Shown here: piece by piece, positions 40,129 to 59,351 of the stretch | How positions within the stretch are numbered: position 1 is the first letter of the stretch | Layout of the letters: each line of letters begins with the position of its first letter | Source of the DNA: an uncultured virus (IMG/VR IMGVR_UViG_3300009499_000296) | Lineage: Duplodnaviria; Heunggongvirae; Uroviricota; Caudoviricetes | Reading direction: 5' to 3' (one strand) | IMG/VR virus record: IMGVR_UViG_3300009499_000296 | Length of the DNA: 64,000 nucleotides | Program-made: the position numbers and the translations under genes | The notes under the pieces: generated by a model | What the model was told of the DNA's origin: nothing | The model's database searches: none | What the model saw: only the letters and a program-made list of their open reading frames with translations

Positions 40129-42490
40129 TTAGCTCCAGCCAGTTGACCCAGCCGAGAAGATCAGATAGACGTATTCTGGGCGGAACTGCTGATACTTGAT
40201 CCAGGCATCCCAACTGAACCGGTACATGCTCTCGAAGTCGTCTACTGGAGGGGGGGTGTGCAACTGAGGTCTCTGCCCCACGCCAGCGGCAACCCCGTTG
40301 GGGCCAGCGATGAACACAGTCATGTGAACATCAAGACCCCTGGTGATGTACCAGGTATCTGAGGCAGTCAAATCCTTTAGGATCGGCCTCTCAAAGCTCA
40401 GCGTGTTGTCTCCACCCGGGTCAACCGCATAGATGACTCGCTCGATCTTCGTACCATCGTCCCACTTAGCCCTGCCGTCGCTCTCCCTGGTCTGTTGAAT
40501 ACTCACCCTATCCTTGGCGCTGAACCCCGTAGAGTCAGTTACAGTGATATAGTGAGTAGCATCGGCTTCACCGACACCATACACTCCACGCACCTTCGTT
40601 GCGGGGGTAGGTGCGCCGTCGCCTGCGTCCACGTCTGCGGCCAGGGTGGTCTGAGCAGAGACAGTTCCACAGTTCCACAGAATGTTCCGAGTGGTCTGTA
40701 GGAACCGAGCCTGCTTGTACTGCCCTACCTCATAGCGAGAGATGGGGGGTATGTTCTGGTACAGCTGGACTGACTTCCAGTGGCTGTCGTCGGCTGCCGC
40801 GGCCTGGATATCGTAGATCACACCGGGAGTGGTGATCCCTACGATTGTGCCCTGCGGTCCCGTGGGGTTGTTCGCCATCGGGCACTCATTGACCGCTGCC
40901 TCTAGCCAGACCTGCATCACGTCATCTACGTCGAAGATGTCGGTGGAAGTCAGGTTGGCGAATCCTGAGTCATCTACACCGGTTGCGGTTCCCGAGAACA
41001 TCATGAAGTAGCTGTTCCCGAAAGCATTCCGCATGAGGACGTCCAGATAGTCAGTGATATTCTGGCCCAGCTTTCCTCGACAGATTGGCCTCAGCCCCGC
41101 CTGCCCGTTCTGTTTCCAGTAGGTCACCATGTCGTCGTACTTGTGAAGGGAGATTTTGTCCCCGTGCAATCTGTTACTTGACCAACCAACCTATTTGTGG
41201 TATACTGTACCCATCAGGATAACTTTACAAGGAGGTCAATCATGGACTCTATAGTTGTTGCCGAGTTTCGCGGTTTGTTCTGGGGTGAGGGTTCGGTTCT
41301 GATCACCCGCAAGAGACTCAAGGGTAGGGGCCTTTGGACTTATGTTCCCGCTCTCACGATGGATATGTACAACGACGAGAGGGAAATCTTGAAGGCGGTC
41401 GCCCTACACATTGGCGGTCATTTTGGCGGCCCCTACAAAATCTCTGGTGCCAATGATAGCTTCCGCTACCGCTGGCGCGTAGATGGCTTTACCCAAACCC
41501 CGCCTATTGCTCGCTTGCTCCTAGACGGAGCTGTTCTCCCACATCCTAAGATAGAACAACTGGGGCTCCTGCTGGAGTTCTGCAACTACCGTCTCTCGTT
41601 TCGCCACAGTTACCTGGGGCGAAAAGTCAAGGCAAAACTGGCTGAGTATTTCGAGCGCATGAAAGCTCTCCGTTGTTAAGGTTGGCGAGCCAGTCATTTC
41701 TGCTGGCCTCTTACGGTTCATTTCCCGTAAGTTCGGACTGTCGCATCCTCTTTCGAGGCCCTCTCGCTCAGTCTCTCAGGCTGCTTCCGCTTGCCCCCTG
41801 TTGGCATCTCAGCGTTCAGGTCAATCAGAGAGGGTTTTTCATTCTCGCTATGCTGCGAGCGGGAGCGCCAAGGTTCCTAAACGCTCCATCGTTACCTGGA
41901 TGGAACGAGAGTCCAGGTGCTGGCTGGGAACCCAGAGCTCCCGGTCGCCCAGCGCAGTCACGTCAGGCTCCGTGTCGTAGAGCTCGCGGAAGATCATCGT
42001 TTCGGTCGGTGCGGCGAGCATGTTTACCTGATACCTCACGAAAGGGGCGTACACCGACCTGGCGCGGAAAACATCAAGCAGGTCTGGAACATACCAGTCT
42101 CTTTTATTGTTGGTTATAGCGCCCCATAATGTGTTACTTGCTTACCCGTCCTGATGCGTATAGAATTCTTGACGGGCGGGCCATCATTTCTGTGGCCTCT
42201 GCATGTCACCATGCAGTTCGGACTATACCACGATCTGCCCGCCTCCTCGGCAGACCCACCGTGTCTAGTCTCTGAACCGTCTCCCGCCTCCCGGGGGGCT
42301 TGGCTGCTGATTGTCCCTATCTCCAAACTTCTCAAACCCTCACGCTTATCGTTCCCGATTACGTTGTGGTGTCGGAGCCTAACGGGATATTCCAGCAATT
42401 TACGGTGTTTTCATACAGGGTCACCCCCGTATGCCCCTGGGGCTAATCAGGGTGGTCGCTATAATACGTATCGAAGTCTCCAGTAGCCAT
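40129..42490 (-). CDS. major capsid protein, three exons (42490-42449, 42126-41881, 41166-40129), ~441 aa spliced
   Basis: exons join in frame: MATGDFDTYYSDHP|WGAITNNKRDWYVPDLL...VTMER|HGDKISLHKYDD...; follows the scaffold gene; RYEVGQYKQARF, PVDDFESMYRFSW. Confidence 0.85.
41178..41206 (+). promoter_or_regulatory. intron-internal promoter for the antisense HEG
   Basis: TTGACC-N17-TATACT with TG extension. Confidence 0.75.
41242..41679 (+). CDS. LAGLIDADG homing endonuclease, antisense within intron 2
   Basis: AEFRGLFWGEGS motif; AAGGAGG RBS; KIEQLGLLLEF. Confidence 0.85.
   Translation: MDSIVVAEFRGLFWGEGSVLITRKRLKGRGLWTYVPALTMDMYNDEREILKAVALHIGGHFGGPYKISGANDSFRYRWRVDGFTQTPPIARLLLDGAVLPHPKIEQLGLLLEFCNYRLSFRHSYLGRKVKAKLAEYFERMKALRC
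42127..42448 (-). mobile_element. group I intron 1 in the capsid gene (322 nt, no ORF)
   Basis: P AAATTGCTGGAA, Q AATCAGCAGC, R GTTCAGAGACTAG, S GTATAGTCC; P2 with GUGA tetraloop. Confidence 0.9.
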
Positions 42491-42503
42491 TGTTTTTCAC
42501 CTC

Positions 42504-43151
42504 TTATGCGCCTCCTAGTCTCGACCACAGTTGGCTCAGCTTCTCATACTCTTCCTCAAAGCCTGGCTTGCCAGCTATCTCGCTCAGCCGGGCAGCCAGC
42601 TCCTCCTCGGAAGGTGCACCCACACCCCTTGCGGGGGAGGCGGGTGGAGAAACACCCCTCGTTGCAAGTTCTACTTGCCTCTGAACCTCAGTCTCTATGT
42701 GAGAGGACATCAGTTCGTTCCACTCCCCAAGGGTTGTTCTCTGCTCGTCTGCATTCCCTGCGGTCGGGATAAGGTCTGTAAACTTGAAAAGATCGGGGAA
42801 CTCTGAATGGATCAGGTCGTACTTCTGGAGCTTCGCCGTTGCCTCAGTGTACTCTGCAACCAGCTTCTCGGTCTCCACCTCGGCTTCCTGCGATACCTGC
42901 TCCCAGGTTGCCTTCTCGGCTACCAGAGTTCCAAGTTGTTTTTTAGACTCTGCAACATCCTGGGTTAGCTTCTGCTGAGCGGATTCCCAGTTCTGCTTCT
43001 CCTGTTGAAGGGCCTGGAACTGGGCCTGCCACCCCGTAGCTCGCTTCTGCCATTCTGTTGCTTTTGCTTGCCAGTCATCTGGTTCTGAAGCAGCGGGCGG
43101 AGCGCCTTCAATCGGTTCCCCCCCTGGTTCCTGAGCAACAACTTCCGGCAT
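42504..43151 (-). CDS. capsid scaffolding protein
   Basis: acidic coiled coil immediately upstream of the capsid gene. Confidence 0.75.
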   Translation of the reverse strand: MPEVVAQEPGGEPIEGAPPAASEPDDWQAKATEWQKRATGWQAQFQALQQEKQNWESAQQKLTQDVAESKKQLGTLVAEKATWEQVSQEAEVETEKLVAEYTEATAKLQKYDLIHSEFPDLFKFTDLIPTAGNADEQRTTLGEWNELMSSHIETEVQRQVELATRGVSPPASPARGVGAPSEEELAARLSEIAGKPGFEEEYEKLSQLWSRLGGA

Positions 43152-47294: not shown

Positions 47295-47534
47295 TTATCC
47301 TCCAACCGTACCCCGTAAAGTCTCTCGGTCGTCAGCGCCATTTCGCTGAGTTTGCGCGAAACGCTCTACTGCCTCTCCAACCCGTACCCCTAGAGGGCAG
47401 CCCTGAAGCATATACGAGTTCTTCAGAAGAATCCCAAATCTCCGATATTCCTCTGGAGACGGTCTCTTCTCCCACTTCCCGTCACGGGATAGCGGCTCTA
47501 CGATGAATTCTAGTTGTTCCTGGGTGAGTCCCAC
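47295..47534 (-). CDS. hypothetical protein
   Basis: GGAGG RBS, GTG start. Confidence 0.5.
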   Translation of the reverse strand: MGLTQEQLEFIVEPLSRDGKWEKRPSPEEYRRFGILLKNSYMLQGCPLGVRVGEAVERFAQTQRNGADDRETLRGTVGG

Positions 47535-48265
47535 CGTTTATCCTCCAGTTTCACTCCATACAATCGCTCTATCTTCTCCTGAAAGTAGGCCCACACATTG
47601 GCGGCATTCTCATTAGCCTTCATCACCCCACTCCCCTTCCCCCTGCGATACCTGAAGAGCATTCGATGGATCCCCTGCGCTCTGAAGCCCAACAAGTGAG
47701 CCTCCATGAAGAATAACCAATCCTCCCAACCGTAGTGCTCTGGCTTATGTAACTCAGGGTCATAGCCTGTTCTGTTCTTCTCCCTGACAGCTTCCCACAC
47801 ATCTTTCTTGAAGAGCGTCGTGTTGACCATCTCGTTGTGGTCGAGTATGACCTTGGCTAATTTCTCGGGTGTCCTGGGGGGGCATCTCACACTGCCCCTG
47901 TACTTCCCAAAGTACGAATAGTCAGGATAAGCCAAGTCCACCCCAGCACTGAGTACCTGTAGGCCCGTCTCTATCATGTCTGGCTCTAACAGGTCATCTG
48001 CATCCAAGGGCAGTATCACATCGCACCCCCTGTCAATGAGAAACTCGATACCCGTGTTTCTAGCAGCGGAAGGGCCCTTGTTTTCGTCGTGGCGGAGGAG
48101 GTGAGGCTGAAGAGCCAAGCACGCCCTGACAACTGGCCAGGCCTCTTCAGAAGCATCGTCTACTACGACAACGCAAGAAGGCCTCACTGTCTGCCAGGCC
48201 ACACTCTCCAGTGCTTCACCCAAGAGGTGGGCTTGGTTGTAAACCGGTATGACTACCCCTACCAC
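47510..48265 (-). CDS. GT2 (GT-A) glycosyltransferase
   Basis: VVIPVYN, VVDDAS, NKGPSAARNTG, LDADD, WEDW. Confidence 0.92.
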   Translation of the reverse strand: MVGVVIPVYNQAHLLGEALESVAWQTVRPSCVVVVDDASEEAWPVVRACLALQPHLLRHDENKGPSAARNTGIEFLIDRGCDVILPLDADDLLEPDMIETGLQVLSAGVDLAYPDYSYFGKYRGSVRCPPRTPEKLAKVILDHNEMVNTTLFKKDVWEAVREKNRTGYDPELHKPEHYGWEDWLFFMEAHLLGFRAQGIHRMLFRYRRGKGSGVMKANENAANVWAYFQEKIERLYGVKLEDKRWDSPRNN

Positions 48266-48471
48266 TCCTTTACCTCCTGCACAATTTGATATTTCAGGGC
48301 AGCAACAAGGGCCGCCGTAGCATTGAGCGCCCCCTCAGTGAGGTCGGCAATGTCGTATTTCAGGGTGAAATTCATATCCCCAAGCCTACCGTGAACCAGT
48401 ATCTCTCTGGAAGAGGGACCGACACCCCACTCTCGCTTCTTGTACTGTATCTCTCTAATGGTGATTTTCAT
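48259..48471 (-). CDS. hypothetical protein
   Basis: translationally coupled within the cluster. Confidence 0.5.
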   Translation of the reverse strand: MKITIREIQYKKREWGVGPSSREILVHGRLGDMNFTLKYDIADLTEGALNATAALVAALKYQIVQEVKEW

Positions 48472-49436
48472 TATGCCTCCGTGTGTTTAAGATACCATTC
48501 CACTGTTGCCTTCAGCCCAGCCATAAGATTCGGCTCGGGGAGCCAGCCCGTCTTCTCCACCAGCTTGTCAATGTTCGATCCCCTCCGTGGGTATCCATCA
48601 GGGAGAGAAGTGTCGAAGGTGAGCAGCTTCTTCACTCCTATCACATCCTGAATGAGTAGTGCTAGCTCCTTAATACTGACTCTGTTGTGGGGATTGCCTA
48701 TGTTCACCGGGTCAGCCTCTGGATAGTGTTGCAGCACCTTCATCAGCCCTGTCGCTGCGTCCTTAGCCAATAAGAACTCCCTGATTGGCTCGCCTGTGCC
48801 GTAGACCTTCACTACCTCGTCCTCAAGCGTGCGCTTGATAAGAGCAGGTATCACATGGGAGGTCTCTTCGTCAAAGTAGTCGCGAGGGCCGAAGCAGTTA
48901 GAGAACCGTGTGATGGCAATCTTTATGCTACGCTCCGCAGCTACCCATTGAGCATATCGCTCCCCCATCCTCTTGGCCCAACCGTATCCCGCGTTGGTGG
49001 ATTCGGGGTCCCCCCTGTGCCCCTCGCTCTCTAAGGCGGGGAACCTGACATTGTGGGGGTAGACACATACCGTACTGACCTGAGCGTACAAAGGCACACC
49101 TGCTTCGGCACAGAGCGAAAGGGGTACAGTCTGGAGTAGCAAATTCTGATAAAACATCTCGGCATGATGCTTCCGGTTGTAGTGCATTCCTGTTACCCTG
49201 GCTGCCAAGTTGAATACGGCGTCCCTATCAACAAGGTCATAGAGATCATGGCTCTGAACGGCATTGGTGTGACGGAACTCACAGAGCACACCCTCTAAGT
49301 TGCTCATACGCCCACGGCTCAGGTTGTCCATTACCAAGACATCCGCCCCTGCCTCCACGAGCAGCTCGACCAGGTGGGAGCCTATCATGCCAGCACCACC
49401 AATCACAGCAACCCTCATTCCTTCGTAAAAGCTCAT
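48471..49436 (-). CDS. NAD-dependent nucleotide-sugar epimerase/reductase (GDP-fucose-synthase/GME-like)
   Basis: GGAGMIG, YGWAK, HVIPALI, GTGEPIREFL. Confidence 0.9.
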   Translation of the reverse strand: MSFYEGMRVAVIGGAGMIGSHLVELLVEAGADVLVMDNLSRGRMSNLEGVLCEFRHTNAVQSHDLYDLVDRDAVFNLAARVTGMHYNRKHHAEMFYQNLLLQTVPLSLCAEAGVPLYAQVSTVCVYPHNVRFPALESEGHRGDPESTNAGYGWAKRMGERYAQWVAAERSIKIAITRFSNCFGPRDYFDEETSHVIPALIKRTLEDEVVKVYGTGEPIREFLLAKDAATGLMKVLQHYPEADPVNIGNPHNRVSIKELALLIQDVIGVKKLLTFDTSLPDGYPRRGSNIDKLVEKTGWLPEPNLMAGLKATVEWYLKHTEA

Positions 49437-49453
49437 TTCCTCAACCTCCTTAC

Positions 49454-50047
49454 TTACTCAAAGTTGATCTCAAACTCAGCCCTGCTTCGTTTGATTGCTA
49501 CACCGTAATGCCTGTGCGTCTTGATGTCAGGCTCGTCATCACTATACCCAACAAACAACAAGCAGGCTAGAAGATAGCGATCAGTGATGTTCAGCACCTG
49601 GCGAATCGCAAACTCCTTCCGGCTAAGCTCTTTCGGCTCGACCGACTGCCAGCATGTTCTCAATCCAAGCGATTCTGCTATCAGCATCATGCTCATCATC
49701 GCACAGGCTGTGTCCTGCCAGATGAACCTGCTCCATGGGTGCGAGAGAGCGAGATTGAACCCTAGTGGATGAGGCTTCTCAAGGTCAAACAAAACAGCAA
49801 TAACCACCGGAGGATGAACCTTACGAAACCACGGCGCTGAGTTCTCACAGATGATGGCAATCACTTCTTTACCCTTGACAGTAAGAATTCTGGTCTTTTG
49901 GGAGTTGCACGCTGATGGCGCATACATGCCGGCAACGATGATGTGTTCAAGTTTCTCCAGCTCAACATCTCTCGCAGACCAACAACGAACGCTTCTTCTT
50001 CCCTTAATGAGCTCCATCAAGTCTTTCTGTTTCACTCTATACACCAA
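49454..50047 (-). CDS. nitroreductase family flavoprotein
   Basis: RRSVR, APSACNSQ, AESLGLRTCW. Confidence 0.88.
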   Translation of the reverse strand: MVYRVKQKDLMELIKGRRSVRCWSARDVELEKLEHIIVAGMYAPSACNSQKTRILTVKGKEVIAIICENSAPWFRKVHPPVVIAVLFDLEKPHPLGFNLALSHPWSRFIWQDTACAMMSMMLIAESLGLRTCWQSVEPKELSRKEFAIRQVLNITDRYLLACLLFVGYSDDEPDIKTHRHYGVAIKRSRAEFEINFE

Positions 50048-51005
50048 GAAGCGCCTCCTTCAGGTTCGAGAAGAATGGCTTCAAATCTACATGTTGATAC
50101 TCTCGTTCGATGACTTTCTCAACAGCTACCGGCACCTGGTCAGAATTCGATACGAATTCAACCGCCGAGGACAACAGCTCTCTAAAACCAGAAATCTTAT
50201 GTGGTATCCTATCGTCTATGGCCACGCATGGTGTATTGGTGAGTGTGGCAAAAATCATGGCGTGCATCCTATCAGTCACAACTGCCTTGAAGTGGGGATA
50301 GTGTCTCAAAACACTATCTATGTACTGGCCTCGGACAGAATCAGTCAGATCACACTGGCTAACCTGCACGTCTTTCGCAACGACATCAAACCTCGCTCTC
50401 AGCTTGGCCATCATTGCTTTTTTCATCTCCGAAGTCAACGCCGCCTCATGGTCATTTCTAATCACAACAAGCACACCGCTCCTCTCACCGTACTCGAAGT
50501 TCGGTCTCAAGTAGAAAGCAAAATCAGGCACCATCATACTCTTGCATGTGAAGTTGGCCTCTAAGATTCTATGGCTGACTGGCTCCCTGGCCATCAGCAG
50601 CACATTTCTACGCGCGTCAAGGAAGCTCTTATCCTCTGCAAGCACACGCGCACAACCCTCAAGAGTCAAACGTGGCCCACGGCTACTGACAGGATAGTAC
50701 GATACAGTCACGGGTAGTTGAACAACCCTGCATGGCAGGGTCATTATCTTCTTCCTCACACCATGCCAGATTGGATCAAGAGTGCCAAAATCGCCGCTGC
50801 TATGAATAAACACCAGGTCATTATCATCCACAGTCTCAAACAGAGAAGGCAACCTGCGCACGGTTTCTTCTCTATCTTTTCGCTCAACCTCCCACTCAGG
50901 AAGAAAGTCAGTGATCCACTTCTGGACTGCTACCACCTGCGCATGGTCGCCAACGCTTCGATTAGACGCCGGAAAGTTGCCAAGCCAAAGAATCTTCTTC
51001 ATCAT
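50037..51005 (-). CDS. polysaccharide pyruvyl transferase
   Basis: SVGDHAQ, SGDFG, AREPVS, VPDFAF, TDRMHAMIF, HKISG. Confidence 0.85.
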   Translation of the reverse strand: MMKKILWLGNFPASNRSVGDHAQVVAVQKWITDFLPEWEVERKDREETVRRLPSLFETVDDNDLVFIHSSGDFGTLDPIWHGVRKKIMTLPCRVVQLPVTVSYYPVSSRGPRLTLEGCARVLAEDKSFLDARRNVLLMAREPVSHRILEANFTCKSMMVPDFAFYLRPNFEYGERSGVLVVIRNDHEAALTSEMKKAMMAKLRARFDVVAKDVQVSQCDLTDSVRGQYIDSVLRHYPHFKAVVTDRMHAMIFATLTNTPCVAIDDRIPHKISGFRELLSSAVEFVSNSDQVPVAVEKVIEREYQHVDLKPFFSNLKEALLGV

Positions 51006-51703
51006 ATCCTCGACCCAAAACAACTCACTGTGGTAGCCCTCTTCTCACTCAGAATCTTACCGAGCGGCTTCGCAGGAAAATGCCTGGTCACCTTATACAT
51101 GAAGATCCCATCAGCATGAAACTCATCGGCTTTAGAGCAATTCGTGTATGGGTAACTGAGAGAATCAAGACAGCTACTATGAAAGCAAAACTGACCACCA
51201 TCAATGGCGCCATCCGGAGACCTCTTAGCGCCAAAGACACAAGCCGGATTCAGAGACTCCCCCCAACCCACAGGACCCATCTTGGTCCTTTTACCATCAA
51301 CCATTCGTGTGAGCCTAAGGCCATGATAGCATGCCTTCACGTCAGCGTTCTCCTTGAAAAACCTGTCTATCTCCTCAAGACAATTAGGGTAGAGGATGTC
51401 ATCATCAGCCAGCCAGAGAATCAGCTCTGCTTGTTGCTTCAATTCTCTGAAGTACTTGTCATGAAGCACCACATGAACCGGCAGCCGTTTTCTCTCATCG
51501 TCTGAGAACGCTTCTTCAAAGAGAGTGATCCTAGAGTCATTGAATGACTTAATCACCTCCATCGTCTTGGTCTTCTCAGTTGTACTATTGTCAACCACAG
51601 CGTAGATGAAATCGCCAAAGGTCTGAGCCAGCACGCTGTTGATCGCATCGCCAACATACCCTGGCTTATTGTACGACAGCGTCAATATCCCGAACCTCTT
51701 CAA
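51002..51703 (-). CDS. GT2 glycosyltransferase
   Basis: SYNKPGYVGDAINSVLAQT, VVDNS, LADDD. Confidence 0.85.
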   Translation of the reverse strand: MKRFGILTLSYNKPGYVGDAINSVLAQTFGDFIYAVVDNSTTEKTKTMEVIKSFNDSRITLFEEAFSDDERKRLPVHVVLHDKYFRELKQQAELILWLADDDILYPNCLEEIDRFFKENADVKACYHGLRLTRMVDGKRTKMGPVGWGESLNPACVFGAKRSPDGAIDGGQFCFHSSCLDSLSYPYTNCSKADEFHADGIFMYKVTRHFPAKPLGKILSEKRATTVSCFGSRI

Positions 51704-51706
51704 TCT

Positions 51707-52363
51707 CTATCTCCTTCTCAAGTACCCACCAGGATTGGCAGTCACGAAAAATTTCTCCCGGGACCTATCTATGATGAATTGGTCGTTGGTCTTCAGGAAC
51801 TCTTGCACTGCTTCAAACGGCCCTTCCCCCCAGCCAGGCAACGTTGGGTGCCCATTGAGAGCCGTGTCCTCCACTATCATGTAGCTACCGGATGACACCA
51901 GCCCAGCATACACTTTCATCTCGGCAAGAACATGCGCCTTAATGTGATTTGAATCGAGATCAACTAGCACAACATCACCTGGTCGAATCAGCGACCTCAC
52001 CCTGCCTACAATCTCAGGCGCAATAGATGAGCCCTTCAAAAAGGTGATTCCCTCGTGTACCGGCAACCCTTCAGGCTTGAACCAATCAAAGTGATGGTCT
52101 CCATGAATCGGCGGGTACTGAACATCTATACTCACCACCCTACCGCGACCAACAAGATCAAGAATGTTAGCCATGAACAGGGCGCTGCCACCGAACTGCG
52201 TCCCGCACTCCACAATGATGTCAGGCTTCACCTCACTTATGATCTCCTGCAACGTCCAGAGATCCTGCGGATACTTTGACACCGGGTAGCCAAACCATCT
52301 CGTGTTCTGCCACACGTGTGAGTCAGAGTAGAACCGCTGAAACTCCTCAACTATCTTCTCCAT
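51707..52363 (-). CDS. CmcI/cephalosporin-hydroxylase-family (rhamnosyl O-)methyltransferase
   Basis: KYPQDLW, KPDIIVECGTQFGGSALF, DLDSNH, YMIVEDT. Confidence 0.9.
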   Translation of the reverse strand: MEKIVEEFQRFYSDSHVWQNTRWFGYPVSKYPQDLWTLQEIISEVKPDIIVECGTQFGGSALFMANILDLVGRGRVVSIDVQYPPIHGDHHFDWFKPEGLPVHEGITFLKGSSIAPEIVGRVRSLIRPGDVVLVDLDSNHIKAHVLAEMKVYAGLVSSGSYMIVEDTALNGHPTLPGWGEGPFEAVQEFLKTNDQFIIDRSREKFFVTANPGGYLRRR

Positions 52364-52397
52364 TTTACGGTCTGTCCCCCAAAGTTTAAGATACTTA

Positions 52398-52898
52398 TCA
52401 TTTCCGTATCCAGCCTACTATTTCTGAGCCAGGCGTATTGGCTCTGCCATCTGTGGCTGTCTCCATACCTAGTCTCCTGAGACTTGGGCGGTACACCGAC
52501 CAGTAGTGCTGCTCTGTTGGGTTGCCTTGATATACACCTTGGGGATACCTCCCCCAAGGCGCTGCTACTGCCAACAATTGATGTGTGATAGCAAGTAATC
52601 GCTCTATCACATGTGGAAACTCTTTCTGCTCAACGTGCTCAGGGCCATGCCACCACCAGACATAATCAAACCCATCCGATATAGGCAGCGCCCGCACATC
52701 ACCAAGCACAATGTTACACAGACGCGGATCCCCCGTAAAGTCACGGGCGTTCTTGGGCCAGATCTCAAGAAGCGTAATTTCATTTCCAGCGTCAGCTAAC
52801 TCGGTAAGCCAGGCACACGCATCTAGCCGGGCACCGATATACAACAGTGTCCCTGGCTTCTCAAAGGGCTCAGGAATATGGGGCCGAATGTCGTGCAT
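52398..52898 (-). CDS. class I SAM-dependent methyltransferase-like protein
   Basis: LLYIGA, LEIW, GDVR, FDYVWWWHGPEH. Confidence 0.65.
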   Translation of the reverse strand: MHDIRPHIPEPFEKPGTLLYIGARLDACAWLTELADAGNEITLLEIWPKNARDFTGDPRLCNIVLGDVRALPISDGFDYVWWWHGPEHVEQKEFPHVIERLLAITHQLLAVAAPWGRYPQGVYQGNPTEQHYWSVYRPSLRRLGMETATDGRANTPGSEIVGWIRK

Positions 52899-53009
52899 TA
52901 TGTGACTAACTCCTTACCATAGTATGGATGAAGCTGCATCTTTGGGGGCATTATGCCCTTGTCAAACGGTTCGGGATACCACCACACAACAGCGGGGTGT
53001 ACGCTGTGA

Positions 53010-53888
53010 TCATACTATCTCCATAGTAGAGGGCATAGGTAGCCCACCTACTGCCTGCCTGACCATCTTCCCAAAGGTGTACTCACCACACATCATCCGG
53101 TGAGTCCTTCGCCCCATCGCTTGCCACCAGTTGTAGTCATCGTTCAGCAGCCGAGCTGCTCTGCCTATTAGCTCATCGTACTCTACTTCTATGATACAAT
53201 GGTCGTCACCACCACGGGTGTAGGGGTAGGCGTCGCTACATGCCTCGGTAAGGATGGGCAATCCAAAGGCAGCGGCCAACGAGAACCGCAGGGGCTCCAG
53301 GGCAGGGAAGTCATCCTGGTGAACGTTCAGCATGAAACCCGATTCACACAAGGCCTTCTTCCGCTCATCACCCCAACCGTTGGGAGCCATGCGGATGTTA
53401 CGTTTTGTGAATTGGGCGCAGATGTGGTTACGTCTCCCATTCTGGTAGCTCATGTGAGCAAAGTCATACTCTCGGGGTCCCTTCTCTGTGGTGCCCAGCC
53501 CTGGGTGGCTCCCCAATATCACAAACCTCACCCGGTCATCATGCATGTGGAACACCAGGTATTTGTCACTGAGCCACACCTCATCGAAATACCAGTCATC
53601 CAGCGCCTCTTTGCATCCCTGCCTATAGGCTGCCATGCCGTAGGAGCCACCGGGGCGCTCAAGGCACCACCAGACCACTCTTGCTCTGTAATTATCATCT
53701 CGGTGTGCATCCCGGTGTGGCTTCCACTCCCCATTGAGAGGGGACACGATGTAGACTGCCTCACGAGAAAAGTTCACCTCATCCACATAACAAGTGGGAA
53801 AACCAGACAGCCCTACGAGCTTCCAGTAGTCAGTATATGAATCATATGAGTAGCGGGTTTGGGCGAATACTATGGGCCGTTCTGTCAC
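53010..53888 (-). CDS. GT-B glycosyltransferase-like protein
   Basis: GWGDERKKAL...FMLNVHQ...LEPLRF...PILTE. Confidence 0.65.
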   Translation of the reverse strand: MTERPIVFAQTRYSYDSYTDYWKLVGLSGFPTCYVDEVNFSREAVYIVSPLNGEWKPHRDAHRDDNYRARVVWWCLERPGGSYGMAAYRQGCKEALDDWYFDEVWLSDKYLVFHMHDDRVRFVILGSHPGLGTTEKGPREYDFAHMSYQNGRRNHICAQFTKRNIRMAPNGWGDERKKALCESGFMLNVHQDDFPALEPLRFSLAAAFGLPILTEACSDAYPYTRGGDDHCIIEVEYDELIGRAARLLNDDYNWWQAMGRRTHRMMCGEYTFGKMVRQAVGGLPMPSTMEIV

Positions 53889-53892
53889 TTGG

Positions 53893-55515
53893 TTACCTCC
53901 ATGGATGCCACCCGATAAGGGCCTGGAGTTCAGCGATCCTATCCAACCAGGTGTATTTCTCATGGACTAACTCGCTGCCCTCTCGGGCTATACGTTGTCG
54001 GATACTGTCGTGCTCCAAATAGTAGTCAATCTTGCGCACCAAATCATCGTAATCCGACCATGTTTCAAGGTGTATGCCCCGCTTAAACTCTTCCTCGATG
54101 CCAGGGTAGTCGTGGGTCACGTAGAAAGCACCACTGCCCATCGCGCGAAACAGGCGGTTAGATGTGTAGCGGCGCAAAGAAAGGTGGGATTGTCCAACGG
54201 CGATCTTGCAAGTCCTGTAGCAGGCTGCTTCTTGGCACCAATCCAGCCTCTTGGTAGGAAAGGGCCAGCCAGCACCGTAGACACCGAAATTGTCGCCGTA
54301 CCTTTGCCGAAGAAATTTCACCATATCCAAGCGGTGATCCGAGAGTGGGAAGTGACCTGGGTAATTGTTGCCAAGGAAGACAATCGGTGGGTAGCTATCC
54401 CCTGCATGGCTCCAAGGATGAAGAAGGTGATGCCACCAGCCAATCTGTAGGTAGTCTGCCTGTATACCACCCTTGCGGAACTCCTCTACCCAGTCCATGT
54501 TAGTAACCAGCGTCCAATCAATCTCCTTGCCCAGCTCGAAGTACCATCCAGGAATAGGAGCTCGCACGTCACCTGACCAGTTGACAATCACCCGTCCCTC
54601 ATCTTTCATCAGGCGAGCCGTTCTCACATCTATAATACCTGGGGTCTGCAACTGCATAAATACCAAACTGGGGTCCCATTGGTCACAGGCAATAATCGCC
54701 TCCTCCCTGACCCTTGGCCCCAGCTTTCTCCAGTCTAACTGCTTGTATTCCCCCATTGACCTCAAGGCTCTCTCTAAGCCCGGTTGGTTTTCGCCTGGTA
54801 CATTTAGAGCTATATGGAGTATCCTTCTTCTAAATCCTGTAGGTTCATCAATCCCTTTTCTCAAGGAGTAGAACTTCTCGCTATCAGGATTTACCCCCTC
54901 AGGGTTATTTATGTCTCTGAGTTTGTCTTTGGTTGCTAGGTCATGTACTCGGCAATCTCTCAACCCTACAACCTCGTAGCCCATCTCCATGATGCGACAA
55001 CTTAACTCGCAGTCCCCTCCATAAGTGTAGAACATGTCGGACCACCACCCCGCTCTATCCCCCAGTTCCCTACGAGTCATCCCCTTGTTGGCGTAGACTC
55101 TTCCAAATACGTGGTCAAACCGATAGTCGGGGCTATACAGGTCGAAGGCAAAAGCCACCTGCCCCACTTCGGGATGGGCCTTCATGTAATTGTACGCCCG
55201 GGCAATGCAATCACCCTGTACTTCATCATCGTCATTGATGTGAACGCAAAAGGGAGCTCTTGCCAGCCTCCATCCAGCAGTGAAGGCCCGACAGGCTCCC
55301 GTGAGTTTGCCCTGTTCCACAACCAGCACATCTTCTTGTTGATGCAACCACGCCAGCGTACCATCTGTACTTCCAGCGTCTACGACTATAATCTCATAGG
55401 GAATGTCTTCCACCGAGTCCCTAACGCAATAGATACACGACTTGAGTGCTTCCAGCCTATTCCAGGTGCCGAGGATGATACTTATCTCCACGTCACCTAT
55501 TTGGTTTCCACCCAT
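53893..55515 (-). CDS. fused GT2 plus CgeB-like GT-B glycosyltransferase
   Basis: VVDAGSTDGT, NDDD, YGGDCE; C-terminal TSNRLFRAMGSG...KIDYYLEH. Confidence 0.88.
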   Translation of the reverse strand: MGGNQIGDVEISIILGTWNRLEALKSCIYCVRDSVEDIPYEIIVVDAGSTDGTLAWLHQQEDVLVVEQGKLTGACRAFTAGWRLARAPFCVHINDDDEVQGDCIARAYNYMKAHPEVGQVAFAFDLYSPDYRFDHVFGRVYANKGMTRRELGDRAGWWSDMFYTYGGDCELSCRIMEMGYEVVGLRDCRVHDLATKDKLRDINNPEGVNPDSEKFYSLRKGIDEPTGFRRRILHIALNVPGENQPGLERALRSMGEYKQLDWRKLGPRVREEAIIACDQWDPSLVFMQLQTPGIIDVRTARLMKDEGRVIVNWSGDVRAPIPGWYFELGKEIDWTLVTNMDWVEEFRKGGIQADYLQIGWWHHLLHPWSHAGDSYPPIVFLGNNYPGHFPLSDHRLDMVKFLRQRYGDNFGVYGAGWPFPTKRLDWCQEAACYRTCKIAVGQSHLSLRRYTSNRLFRAMGSGAFYVTHDYPGIEEEFKRGIHLETWSDYDDLVRKIDYYLEHDSIRQRIAREGSELVHEKYTWLDRIAELQALIGWHPWR

Positions 55516-56045: not shown

Positions 56046-56300
56046 CTACTCCTCCTTCGGCTCATCTTCCATCTCCTCCAGGATCGCAATAGTTTGGTCA
56101 GCCTCTTTGCGATCTGAGTCCTTTTTGGCTTCAAGCAGATCTGCATAGAAAGTATCCATGAGTTTCTGCCACCAGATAGCGTCAGGAGCTAGGATTACAA
56201 AAGCGCCTTGTTCTGTTTTGGTACATCGGCTAAATAAATGCCTCATCCAGCGAGACCATCTATCGTGCTCTAACTCTGCCAACCGCTCTCTCAGATTCAT
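56046..56300 (-). CDS. hypothetical phage protein
   Basis: LAELEHDRWSRWM...EAKKDSDR; ATGA overlap with TerL. Confidence 0.65.
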   Translation of the reverse strand: MNLRERLAELEHDRWSRWMRHLFSRCTKTEQGAFVILAPDAIWWQKLMDTFYADLLEAKKDSDRKEADQTIAILEEMEDEPKEE

Positions 56301-57811
56301 CTACCTCTCCTCACACCCCTGTTCGCTCTCCTTATTCCTCTTCTAGCCCAAAGGTACGGAAGATTGTCCTGTCTCGGTTCTTTCATCTGCCTCAAAGGGC
56401 GGATCATCCAGGCACTCATCATCAGACATGCCACCAGGTCCTGCGCTATCTTGTCGTCGGGAAGATCGTATTTCCGAGCTTGGGATTTCATTCCCCGAAT
56501 GAAGGGGAAGGACATACCCCGCAGCTCTAACACCATTCTCAGAGCATTGAGGAATCCGAACTTATCCCTTCTGAAGTTTAGCGGCTCGACTATGATTCCC
56601 TCTCTCTCGAAGACGAGCTCGTCCATGTACTTCTGCGTTCCGGTGGTGTCAAACCCACTGTGCCCAGGATACTTCTCCAGGCCATACTTGAAGGATGTCA
56701 TCCACGGCCCGATGCTACCGTTCCCGTACACCCAGTCAAGATAGACTAGTTCCGCCGGCTCCGCCGTTACGTCCCAGCTCATTACTACGCCCGATCCGCG
56801 TTTGGGGGGGTTCCCCGAGCCCGGATCGCCTGCCGTGATATAAACGTGCCCGTCCTCGTAGGGAAGTTCCCATCTCACACAGCCTATTCTTTCCACCTCC
56901 TGGTAGTCAGCTCCCATGACGCCATGCTCGATGAGGTCGTCCATCTGCTCCATCATTTCTACGCTCTCGCAGTTGTCGTAGTGACGCGCAGGGAGGAGCC
57001 TCCCCCTTACCTCGGGCCATTCACACTCAATGTAGGTCGGGACGTCCTCTTCCGGGGTGTCCGCTATTATCAAGCGCAACTGCTCCTCGGTCACGAAGGG
57101 GTTGTGCTTGGCCAGTATCTTGATGGAGATATGATCCGGGTTGTTCCCAAGCCCCCGCTCGTACCTCTCCTTGAGTACATCATCTGTCCCAGGGACGGTA
57201 GTGATGGTAAGAAGGCACAGTCTGGGAACTTGTGTACGTTGTCGGATGCCGCGAAGGCGGCTCCTCAGTGCCTTGACCGTCTCAGCAAAGTCTGCGATCA
57301 GAGCACCCTCGTCGATGTTGCCCTGGTCGAACTCCTCCCCCTCAAGGTAGTCCAGGTACTCCGGTTTAGCCGTCAGGAACTCCATCGTGGACCCGTTCCG
57401 GAACCTGATCTGGGGATAAGGGGCCGCTACAACCCTATCAAGGAGGTGCTCAAGTTTGTCGTTGTTGACGATCTCGTCCCTCAAGAAATCGTACATCAGT
57501 CTGGCCTGCCGCCCAATCGGAGCGAGATTGACGAACTTGAAATAGCTCTTGGTCAGACAGTTTGTAAACCCGAAGGCAGCCATGTTCGTAGTTTTCCCGC
57601 TGGCCCAAGAACCTAACCAAAACTGGTTAGGTTGAGGAGCATAGTACATGGGCTTGACAGCAGGGAGGAACTTGCGCCCCCAGTACCACTCCAGGAGAAT
57701 GTCCACATCCCCCGTCTGTTGGGCAGCTGCCAGTATCGCTATGTCATCGGGTTTCATGGCTCCGAGATGAGTGTCAAGGAGCTCATGTTGGAATGTCTGT
57801 GGAAATTGCAA
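56297..57811 (-). CDS. terL: terminase large subunit
   Basis: Walker A ASGKTT, Walker B NIDEG, HNP, nuclease GDPG...DTTG...QDLVACL. Confidence 0.85.
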   Translation of the reverse strand: MQFPQTFQHELLDTHLGAMKPDDIAILAAAQQTGDVDILLEWYWGRKFLPAVKPMYYAPQPNQFWLGSWASGKTTNMAAFGFTNCLTKSYFKFVNLAPIGRQARLMYDFLRDEIVNNDKLEHLLDRVVAAPYPQIRFRNGSTMEFLTAKPEYLDYLEGEEFDQGNIDEGALIADFAETVKALRSRLRGIRQRTQVPRLCLLTITTVPGTDDVLKERYERGLGNNPDHISIKILAKHNPFVTEEQLRLIIADTPEEDVPTYIECEWPEVRGRLLPARHYDNCESVEMMEQMDDLIEHGVMGADYQEVERIGCVRWELPYEDGHVYITAGDPGSGNPPKRGSGVVMSWDVTAEPAELVYLDWVYGNGSIGPWMTSFKYGLEKYPGHSGFDTTGTQKYMDELVFEREGIIVEPLNFRRDKFGFLNALRMVLELRGMSFPFIRGMKSQARKYDLPDDKIAQDLVACLMMSAWMIRPLRQMKEPRQDNLPYLWARRGIRRANRGVRRGR

Positions 57812-57814
57812 CTG

Positions 57815-58051
57815 TCATGTCCTTGCCTCCGTAATCGTGCGAGTGGATATGTGCCATTCTACGGCCTCGCCAACCGCAGTCCCAGAGCCGGTTACCTCCC
57901 CGTTCTGAAGTATCGTGGCATCCCTATCTCCTATCTGGACATTCAGGGCCGGCTGACCGTAGATGTCATCGAGCCTCCGCGTCTTGACAAAGCCGAGCGG
58001 CAGAAACGGGGGGCCAAACCTTTCTAGCAGCCTCTCCAATTCCTGAATCAT
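57815..58051 (-). CDS. hypothetical protein
   Basis: AAGGAGG RBS. Confidence 0.5.
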   Translation of the reverse strand: MIQELERLLERFGPPFLPLGFVKTRRLDDIYGQPALNVQIGDRDATILQNGEVTGSGTAVGEAVEWHISTRTITEART

Positions 58052-58093
58052 CAGTAGCCTCCTTCGTGGGTGCATGGACTTTAATAGACACAA

Positions 58094-58259
58094 TGGAGAT
58101 GCCGGGAGTCGAACCCGGGTCCGGGGATCAGTTGCGGAGCTGGTGTAGTCCCAGGGGTGTCCACTCCGGCCCGTTTGGGTCCCGTCGAGGCCCGGGTTGC
58201 GCTGGGATGCGCCGGCACATCCCCTGTAGCACTACCCCGTCGAAGCCTATTCCATCCCC
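58094..58259 (-). ncRNA. ssrA: miniature tmRNA-like RNA (166 nt)
   Basis: 5' GGGGATG..GGCTTCGACGGGG; 3' CCCCGGACCCGGGTTCGACTCCCGGCATCTCCA; 7-bp acceptor stem with G3.U70. Confidence 0.8.
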
Positions 58260-58357
58260 TGTTGTAAACATCGCTGGTGGGTCCCCTATTTCCCCGTTAC
58301 GGCCCTGTGAATGGCCTACCCACCCCGTCCCACTTGAAGGGGGGAGAATCAAGGAGG

Positions 58358-58636
58358 TTATAGTCTGCCCAGCTCGCCTACGATACTGACCAGCGTCTCC
58401 AAGGCCTCCCGCGTGCGTCCCGAGATATAGGTTATGCCCCGGAGGATAGAGTCGATAGTAAATATTGGCGAGGTTTGGCCCTCAACACCCTTCCCTCTCG
58501 GCTCCATCTTCAAGACCGCCAGGATCTGGTCAACAACGTCCAGCAGCTCTGCTGTCTCTTTAGTTAGCTCTTCGAGACGCTCTCTTACTGTAGTCTCTCT
58601 CGGATCTGTCCCCGTATGTGTTTGTGCCGTTGGCAT
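58358..58636 (-). CDS. hypothetical coiled-coil protein
   Basis: GAGGAG RBS. Confidence 0.55.
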   Translation of the reverse strand: MPTAQTHTGTDPRETTVRERLEELTKETAELLDVVDQILAVLKMEPRGKGVEGQTSPIFTIDSILRGITYISGRTREALETLVSIVGELGRL

Positions 58637-58639
58637 CTT

Positions 58640-59035
58640 CTACTCCTCTCTCCAGGCATCGAGTGTCTCGGGATGTTCCCCGACAAACCTCACCGCAATG
58701 GTAGCCAGGAGCTCATCCCACTTACCCCACTCAATGATGTCCACGAGGAGTTCTGCATCCTGCGGGTTGAGTCCCTGCCTGTTAGCCTCTAACAGTACTG
58801 CCTTAATTCGATTGCTCATTCGAGCCTCCTTGTATTCATCGAAAGCCTCGCGACCTTGCCAATCAAGTTCTGAGCTTAAGTGGATAGAAACCGTTGGTGC
58901 TTCTTCAATCGCGCCACAGAACAGGGGCCCCATTGTAAAATGCGCCAAGTAATCCCCTGCCTCTATAGGACTACCATCCCACGTCCCAGTGTTGCCAGCC
59001 GTATCTTTTGTGTCGCCTGTGTCACAAACGCTCAT
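58640..59035 (-). CDS. hypothetical protein
   Basis: GAGGAG RBS. Confidence 0.55.
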   Translation of the reverse strand: MSVCDTGDTKDTAGNTGTWDGSPIEAGDYLAHFTMGPLFCGAIEEAPTVSIHLSSELDWQGREAFDEYKEARMSNRIKAVLLEANRQGLNPQDAELLVDIIEWGKWDELLATIAVRFVGEHPETLDAWREE

Positions 59036-59351
59036 ATTTCTCCTCGACTATTGCCCTGAGATAGTCCCTCATTCTCTCGCCTTGATACATCAGCAGCCGC
59101 AACTTCCTTGCCTTGCTCTCTGCTATTCTCCTTCCAGGTACAAGATACCCGTGGTGAGCAGCGTCGTGACAAGTGAGACAGAGGGTGACTACGTTGGTTT
59201 CAATGTCTAATCCCCCGCTCCCCCTGCTCTTGATGTGGTGAGGAGATAGCCCCATCGCCCCTCCGCAATTCAAACACTTCCCGTCACGATGTAGAACCAT
59301 TTCTCGTAACTTCAGCCAATCTGCCCCCTCGCTTCTATCCGACAACATCAA
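59022..59351 (-). CDS. HNH endonuclease (probably packaging associated)
   Basis: RDGKCLNCG...HHIKSRGSGG.D...NVVTLCLTCH. Confidence 0.88.
   Translation of the reverse strand: MMLSDRSEGADWLKLREMVLHRDGKCLNCGGAMGLSPHHIKSRGSGGLDIETNVVTLCLTCHDAAHHGYLVPGRRIAESKARKLRLLMYQGERMRDYLRAIVEEKYERL

Follow-up and report, generated by a model that had tools for sequence, protein, structure and literature searches.

A short tmRNA-like gene without a recognisable tag in an uncultured phage genome

Results and discussion

The stretch of DNA that we analysed (the window) comprises the first 64,000 bases of a 71,286-nt virus record; the record is classified as a provirus and is 87% complete. At 58094-58259 on the minus strand the window carries what its sequence identifies as a genuine tmRNA-like RNA gene, 166 nt long and in standard order, in which the landmarks of the tRNA-like domain (TLD) are complete and no tag is recognisable. 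The gene can be placed in a broad class of tag-less short tmRNAs, a kind that is already published and is common in phage contigs, and as a longer variant of that barely studied kind it involves no new principle. As to its function, our analysis favours, with a probability of about 0.5, an RNA that competes with host tmRNA, the shared targets being SmpB and stalled ribosomes. Trans-translation, which is often essential, serves as an antibiotic target, and a phage RNA with a TLD but no tag would inhibit or re-route this process by natural means.

The tRNA-like domain

The first-pass annotation had described a half-size tmRNA with an intact alanyl-tRNA-like domain, and had proposed checking it with the Rfam tmRNA models in Infernal and with ARAGORN. 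The Rfam model RF00023 matched the gene with 53.2 bits (cut-off 47, E 4.3e-18), with 106 unmatched nt in place of 312 in the model, whereas ARAGORN made no call for it in the window. A TLD pattern matched the window once and none of 100 shuffles (all coordinates below are window positions on the minus strand unless stated otherwise). The acceptor stem was borne out in full, with GGGGAUG (58253-58259, carrying G3) forming 7/7 pairs with CAUCUCC (58095-58101, carrying U70), followed by the discriminator A73 at 58094, the first base of the 3' acceptor segment 58094-58101 in window numbering. The G3.U70 pair is the alanine identity element. The other predicted parts are present as well: a stemless D-loop (58240-58252) which ends GGCUUCGA, also given as GGCUUCGAC; helix 2a, a 5-bp run of CGGGG (58235-58239, placed by the Rfam alignment) and CCCCG (58122-58126); and a GAC linker with a canonical T-arm (58102-58121, also within the Rfam match), which has a 5-bp T-stem and the loop UUCGACU. 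TTG occupies the position of CCA, which is not encoded, as had been claimed. The D-loop has a G at gene position 19, reported as necessary for SmpB binding in the available text of PMC8363625.

These are the features that the gene shares with bacterial ssrA (G3.U70 acceptor, stemless D-loop, helix 2, GAC and T-arm), and the contrast lies in the rest. The 34 full-length genes that we measured are 338-386 nt long, which agrees with the earlier remark that 166 nt falls short of a typical ssrA, and, judged by size and sequence, the phage gene has neither a tag frame ending in an Ala-Ala-type degron nor the pseudoknot ring of a ~350-nt trans-translating tmRNA. The interior had been put at ~95 nt; it is 108 nt within the 5-bp helix 2, and the lower figure is approached (~93 nt) only when the extension of the helix is counted.

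Several other gene types were tried and rejected. A permuted (two-piece) tmRNA scored 15.8 bits with RF04321 against a cut-off of 47, and ARAGORN offered a permuted match solely at its 80% threshold with 'Tag not identified'. An intron-containing tRNA-Ala, named in the first-pass annotation as the alternative that could overturn it, fails as there is no D-stem and ARAGORN, run with introns and relaxed thresholds, forced a tRNA-Pro and returned no tRNA-Ala; the TLD reading stands. An attP remnant of an ssrA-targeting integrase does not fit a gene with both ends present, and in the 71-kb record no 14-mer of the gene is repeated and no PF00589 integrase was found despite the provirus classification (the scan covered integrases of the tyrosine type).

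Genomic setting

The gene is located in the packaging region between small ORFs on the same strand; an HNH gene lies upstream, and downstream is the gene for the terminase large subunit (56297-57811; PF03237, E 9e-6). The flanking ORFs have no assigned function; the upstream one (58358-58636) encodes 92 aa and the downstream one (57815-58051) 78 aa, with AAGGAGG ahead of its ATG. Neither a sigma-70 promoter nor a same-strand terminator was found in 57800-58800, from which we infer that the gene is co-transcribed with its neighbours and processed by host enzymes. The flanks on both sides fold no better than shuffles. No SmpB is encoded in the 71-kb record, and neither ARAGORN nor Rfam called a tRNA in the window.

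We looked for close relatives of the 108-nt interior in viral scans, cultured phages and genome searches and found none. Scans of viral contigs led by the terminase recovered no related viral locus; the 17 terminase homologues, including that of the window, came without surrounding sequence. Terminase matches occur in four of 401 genomes belonging to the same class as an Anaerolineae metagenome-assembled genome (MAG), and one of these, a terminase relative with E 2.5e-80, is the only hint of a host. Rfam had no hit on the five terminase loci from the 401 genomes, and no short tmRNA scored above the cut-off in the four terminase-bearing genomes. Cultured phages gave hits of T-arm length only, and a hit in phage GMA2 was rejected as a relative, resembling the 3' end of an ordinary tmRNA.

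A family of short phage-type genes

Eight pattern scans for genes of the same build produced 133 overlapping rows (95 viral, 8 genome and 30 metagenome), which a filter for 5' GGG and at least six acceptor pairs reduced to 69 distinct sequences including that of the window. The rows dropped were duplicates, matches within full-length or permuted tmRNAs (e.g. L003, L006, L007, L012, L021-L030 and L038) and some others that were not inspected singly. Inspection by eye then took out one chance match and five host-type genes that have internal deletions, which left 63. There are thus 62 further distinct short genes of 85-163 nt, mostly on viral and metagenome contigs and some of them near-identical, and the 166-nt gene is the longest member found. 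Fifteen consist of the TLD plus one plain hairpin (85-100 nt), 42 have a restart-like loop (37 scored plus five near-copies), and five lack a clear site. Of the 69 distinct sequences, 30 encode CCA. It should be noted that G3.U70 was demanded by the search pattern and its presence in the relatives is therefore no independent evidence.

None of the 44 viral records with short genes encodes SmpB, including all seven that are at least 90% complete, and the short gene is the sole tmRNA match in 19 of 20 viral records (the last had none at threshold). A full-length ssrA and smpB were found in all three MAGs that carry a genuine short copy. When we surveyed the 151 genomes of the phylum of the seed genome (two unpublished genomes included), 143 had a tmRNA match and a short one was seen in the seed genome only. 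Two relatives are associated with tRNAs: the short gene of L033 (1-3146, minus strand) heads an array of tRNAs (22 hits), its Anaerolineales MAG carrying a full-length ssrA as well, and the short gene of L011 adjoins tRNAs.

The closest published likeness is the tmRNA of mycobacteriophage DS6A (tmID 11587; Phage__Mycobacterium.9), for which Mao et al. 2009 is reportedly the source cited. It is listed as 'TLD only' in the available text of PMC4131195, where a similar molecule is said to be a strong inhibitor of tmRNA, and according to this paper and PMC11915505 the TLD-only DS6A form inhibits E. coli tmRNA, perhaps by titrating SmpB. As far as these descriptions go, DS6A and our gene are both phage-borne, of standard order, with an intact TLD and, from the sequence, no tag frame; the two differ in that the DS6A RNA is 'little more than the TLD', whereas the 166-nt gene has its 108-nt interior with a possible restart-like loop. 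The 15 plain-hairpin relatives are DS6A-like. The available parts of PMC11915505 count 9 'standard, no CDS' genes among 97,179 tmRNA sequences, with 79 sequences from phages, and note that curation of the database rejected large internal deletions in older MAGs.

Tag frames are likewise missing from CDS-less organellar tmRNAs (the mitochondrial RF02544 and the ~65-bp Mallomonadaceae plastid genes), but in the descriptions available these are the only tmRNA of the cell and mostly permuted, while phage-type short genes co-occur with host ssrA in the three MAGs above. The Fermentibacterota tmRNAs, with a two-residue (Ala-Ala) tag, show how small a coding part can be, and three of our short relatives read A* or nearly so after the restart-like motif; the Fermentibacterota genes are however described as chromosomal host genes and the 166-nt gene has no Ala-Ala frame. 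We found no report of a long, loop-bearing phage form in the mainly open-access literature, and Table S2 or the database of PMC11915505 may already list mid-size phage forms. With one phage example described in the literature examined and only 5 of the 63 short genes called by ARAGORN as tmRNA with a peptide, the family appears to be under-annotated.

The restart-like loop of the longer relatives

Motif discovery in 37 representatives less than 70% alike, with the window excluded, returned W-A-A-A-K-G-C-S-Y-W with a log-likelihood of 80, compared with 45, 38 and 36 for three shuffled sets (15 starts for the shuffled and 40 for the real sequences). It is found in the 18-24-nt loop of a hairpin, the 3' end of the loop being rich in A, and we define the long-form subgroup by such a loop containing W-A-A-N followed by G-S-C-Y-W and, further on, the A-rich end. 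In leave-one-out tests 19/37 sites reached p<0.05, and leaving out whole clusters gave p<0.05 in 25/37 and the same site in 34/37, for a set of genes picked for having the site, nine of the sites being fixed by eye. A sequence-only alignment of 13 members with a three-way junction has two-sided changes in 12/13 interior pairs, a kind of count that kinship inflates, and a covariation score of 0.633 compared with 0.231 when shuffled and at most 0.254 when slid. The covariance model built from them (R1) found only its own 13 training genes significant among 50 loci. Registration was too poor in a core alignment of 33 long forms for a model, RNAalifold gave no consensus for 15 other members, and there was no signal of conserved pairing of the loop with the D- or T-loop (best MI 0.39 vs 1.0-1.7 in T-stem controls).

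The loop was compared with 23 distinct host restart sites, in which A at -4 and G at +1 both have a frequency of 1.00. The mini forms have A at -4 (0.76) and -3 (0.86) with the A-to-GNN spacing of the host sites, and are unlike them at -5, -1, +4 and +5. In the host, the base at -4, A86, determines the frame and stacks against Tyr55 of SmpB (available text of PMC2481249 and PMC8363625).

Five examples had suggested a mini-tag that is conserved and stops within helix 2, an idea that was rejected when all 37 long relatives were considered: the frame expected from the motif has a stop in 15/37, compared with 22/37 and 20/37 in the other two, and the peptides read after the motif do not end alike. 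The post-motif frame is, as read from these sequences, under no selection for a stop, and the conserved motif together with this unselected frame leads us to conclude that what the long family retains is the restart-like loop and not a tag. If any relatives have a translated mini-tag, the leading candidates are two of 161 nt with similar peptides, L039 (1505-1665, minus strand) and L047 (222-382, minus strand), in each of which a single frame stays open from the motif up to a stop close to helix 2. We also observed an internal loop, AGCAA opposite AAGUG/GAGUA, which is in reversed orientation between L040 and L009 on the one hand and L013, L016 and L034 on the other, and an AGUA/GAAA loop beside the core hairpin in L011, L094, L107 and L111 which presumably resembles a bulged-G motif.

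Reading frames and fold of the 166-nt gene

Three stops occur in the gene, two of them TAG (gene positions 11 and 26) and the third TGA (position 130). The first-pass annotation had reported a single stop, in the 3' strand of helix 2; this is correct for the region downstream of the helix 2 5' strand, where the TGA (58128-58130) is alone and closes a frame reading ...GPEWTPLGLHQLRN*, but not for the gene as a whole. The reported lack of an Ala-Ala-type tag agrees with our findings, as the sole closed frame ends ...QLRN* and ARAGORN made no call, whereas the tags of 34 host full-length tmRNAs all end in AA. The description of a TLD without recognisable tag holds.

The interior is less well defined than had been thought. 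The hairpin GGGAUGUG/CGCAUCCC (58204-58223), previously called clear, has a pairing probability of only ~0.5 with helix 2 forced and is rivalled by an 11-bp helix (gene positions 34-46/98-108) at ~0.45. Helix 2 itself is absent from the lowest-energy fold when the acceptor and T-arm are fixed (-70.9 kcal/mol), and forcing it costs 3.4 kcal/mol (-67.5). Neither the whole RNA (z -0.64) nor the interior (z -0.92) folds better than shuffles. The best restart-like site is in a candidate hairpin at 58154-58183 where GGG/CCC closes a 24-nt loop with the motif G at 58171 (G89); its score of 8.9 is within the range of the members (5.6-19.7), with p=0.18 in the leave-cluster-out test and p=0.27 in an earlier one. 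This match to the family motif is compatible with membership but not significant, and R1, which misses other subgroups too, had no hit on the gene, so that it is a possible member of the loop subgroup. R1 did produce a weak match elsewhere in the window (41756-41846, E 0.014) with several pairs broken, which is probably chance.

A true miniature tmRNA adding a new, non-degron tag of 15 residues, (A)GPEWTPLGLHQLRN, would be consistent with the A at -4 of a GGG codon and with the TGA closing that frame, and the L039/L047 pair with its open frame and stop, like the five ARAGORN calls with a peptide, suggests that some relatives might be translated. We nonetheless find this highly improbable for three reasons: the family as a whole does not conserve the frame, the CCAAAC context is without the U that 87% of the 23 host sites have at -5, and the stop is located in helix 2.

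The same frames bear on the idea that the RNA is a tag-free rescuer, one that accepts the stalled chain and lets the ribosome go, through drop-off or through restart on its own loop to any stop, and so spares phage proteins from degradation. In the 37 longer relatives the loop has A at -4/-3, and GNN follows at the host spacing; one frame of the 166-nt gene does close with TGA, and CDS-less mitochondrial tmRNAs are suggested in the available text of PMC11915505 to help with incomplete mRNAs. However, the frame set by G89 has no stop, the TGA frame beginning one base earlier, and the lack of any excess of motif-frame stops in the relatives and the departures of their loop from host sites at four positions also argue against it. 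The host pseudoknot ring, moreover, encircles the 30S beak with dimensions of ~81 x 97 A (available text of PMC8363625), a path which 108 nt could hardly copy. Overall we consider tag-free rescue unlikely. It is a long shot that the long phage forms, the 166-nt gene included, carry a caged but working restart signal in the loop which, with host SmpB, would switch the template and lead to degron-free release or to a ribosome held on a stop-less frame; if true, this would be a phage rewiring of trans-translation with less than half the RNA and no pseudoknot ring.

A further reading is a non-functional relic, either a captured ssrA that lost its middle or an assembly deletion. The interior has no relative in our searches and an ambiguous fold, and 58180-58194 is identical over 15 nt to the middle of the Corynebacterium otitidis tmRNA, an actinobacterial gene (score 41, reached by 0/100 base shuffles). 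Host-type ssrA genes with internal deletions were encountered in our scans (L032, L036, L037, L044 and L046). Against decay, the acceptor (7/7 pairs), T-arm and D-loop are undamaged, and the 15-nt identity does not extend in the 401 genomes of the C. otitidis phylum; interior blastn searches of 401 + 301 genomes returned only 19-50-nt matches (best E 8e-5 per genome). One contig of a public subsurface-metagenome run, possibly the source of this DNA, covers 57300-59100 without difference, gap or joint, and the mid-genome site with no repeat of at least 14 nt and no PF00589 integrase also speaks against a captured remnant. A relic is accordingly very unlikely. The five deleted genes are in MAGs or metagenome contigs and are probably assembly deletions; L036 is the only tmRNA match in its own MAG.

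Predicted function

Host enzymes mature tRNA-like ends and add CCA. In the competitor reading, the RNA would be cut from a longer phage transcript by the tRNA-processing enzymes of the host, which would also add CCA, charged by the host alanyl-tRNA synthetase through G3.U70, and bound by host SmpB and EF-Tu. It might then tie up SmpB, or enter a non-stop ribosome and have the nascent chain moved onto its alanine, or both. As the RNA has no tag ending in AA to offer, less ssrA tagging, and less of the ensuing proteolysis, would take place during infection. The interior would probably be a stable filler arm in place of the pseudoknot ring; a remnant of the restart loop may persist in it as a second contact for SmpB.

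We favour competition because of the DS6A precedent, the absence of a phage SmpB and the co-occurrence of short genes with host ssrA. Competition corresponds to the SmpB/EF-Tu decoy among the three functions proposed in the first-pass annotation. Counting against competition are an interior for which our searches turned up no close relative, helix 2 lying outside the lowest-energy fold, an RNA that folds like its shuffles, and a precedent that is a single heterologous test known through the citing papers; blocked ribosome rescue could also harm phage translation.

The RNA might alternatively absorb the host nucleases directed against tmRNA or tRNA, or replace their target. The relative in the tRNA array (L033) and that beside tRNAs (L011) would fit such an anti-defence role, and so would the CoCoNuT systems, predicted in the available text of PMC10542128 to have SmpB-like domains and possibly to bind tmRNA. 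The window has no tRNA call, though, and a stand-in for tmRNA would be expected to retain the tag, and we regard this role as quite unlikely. Whichever function applies, the length variants of 85-166 nt offer a handle on the minimum RNA needed for ribosomal template switching and on the uncoupling of rescue from destruction.

Other features of the window

A group I intron (RF00028, 59.8 bits) is located at 42199-42533, with a putative scaffold ORF on one side and the major head gene on the other, and a 160-aa ORF on the opposite strand to it (41197-41679) may, as a guess from its sequence, be a homing endonuclease. Between the portal and terminase genes, 47510-55515 contains about eight glycosyltransferase- or sugar-enzyme-like ORFs (with PF00535 and PF13524 at 53893-55515), possibly for virion or DNA glycosylation.
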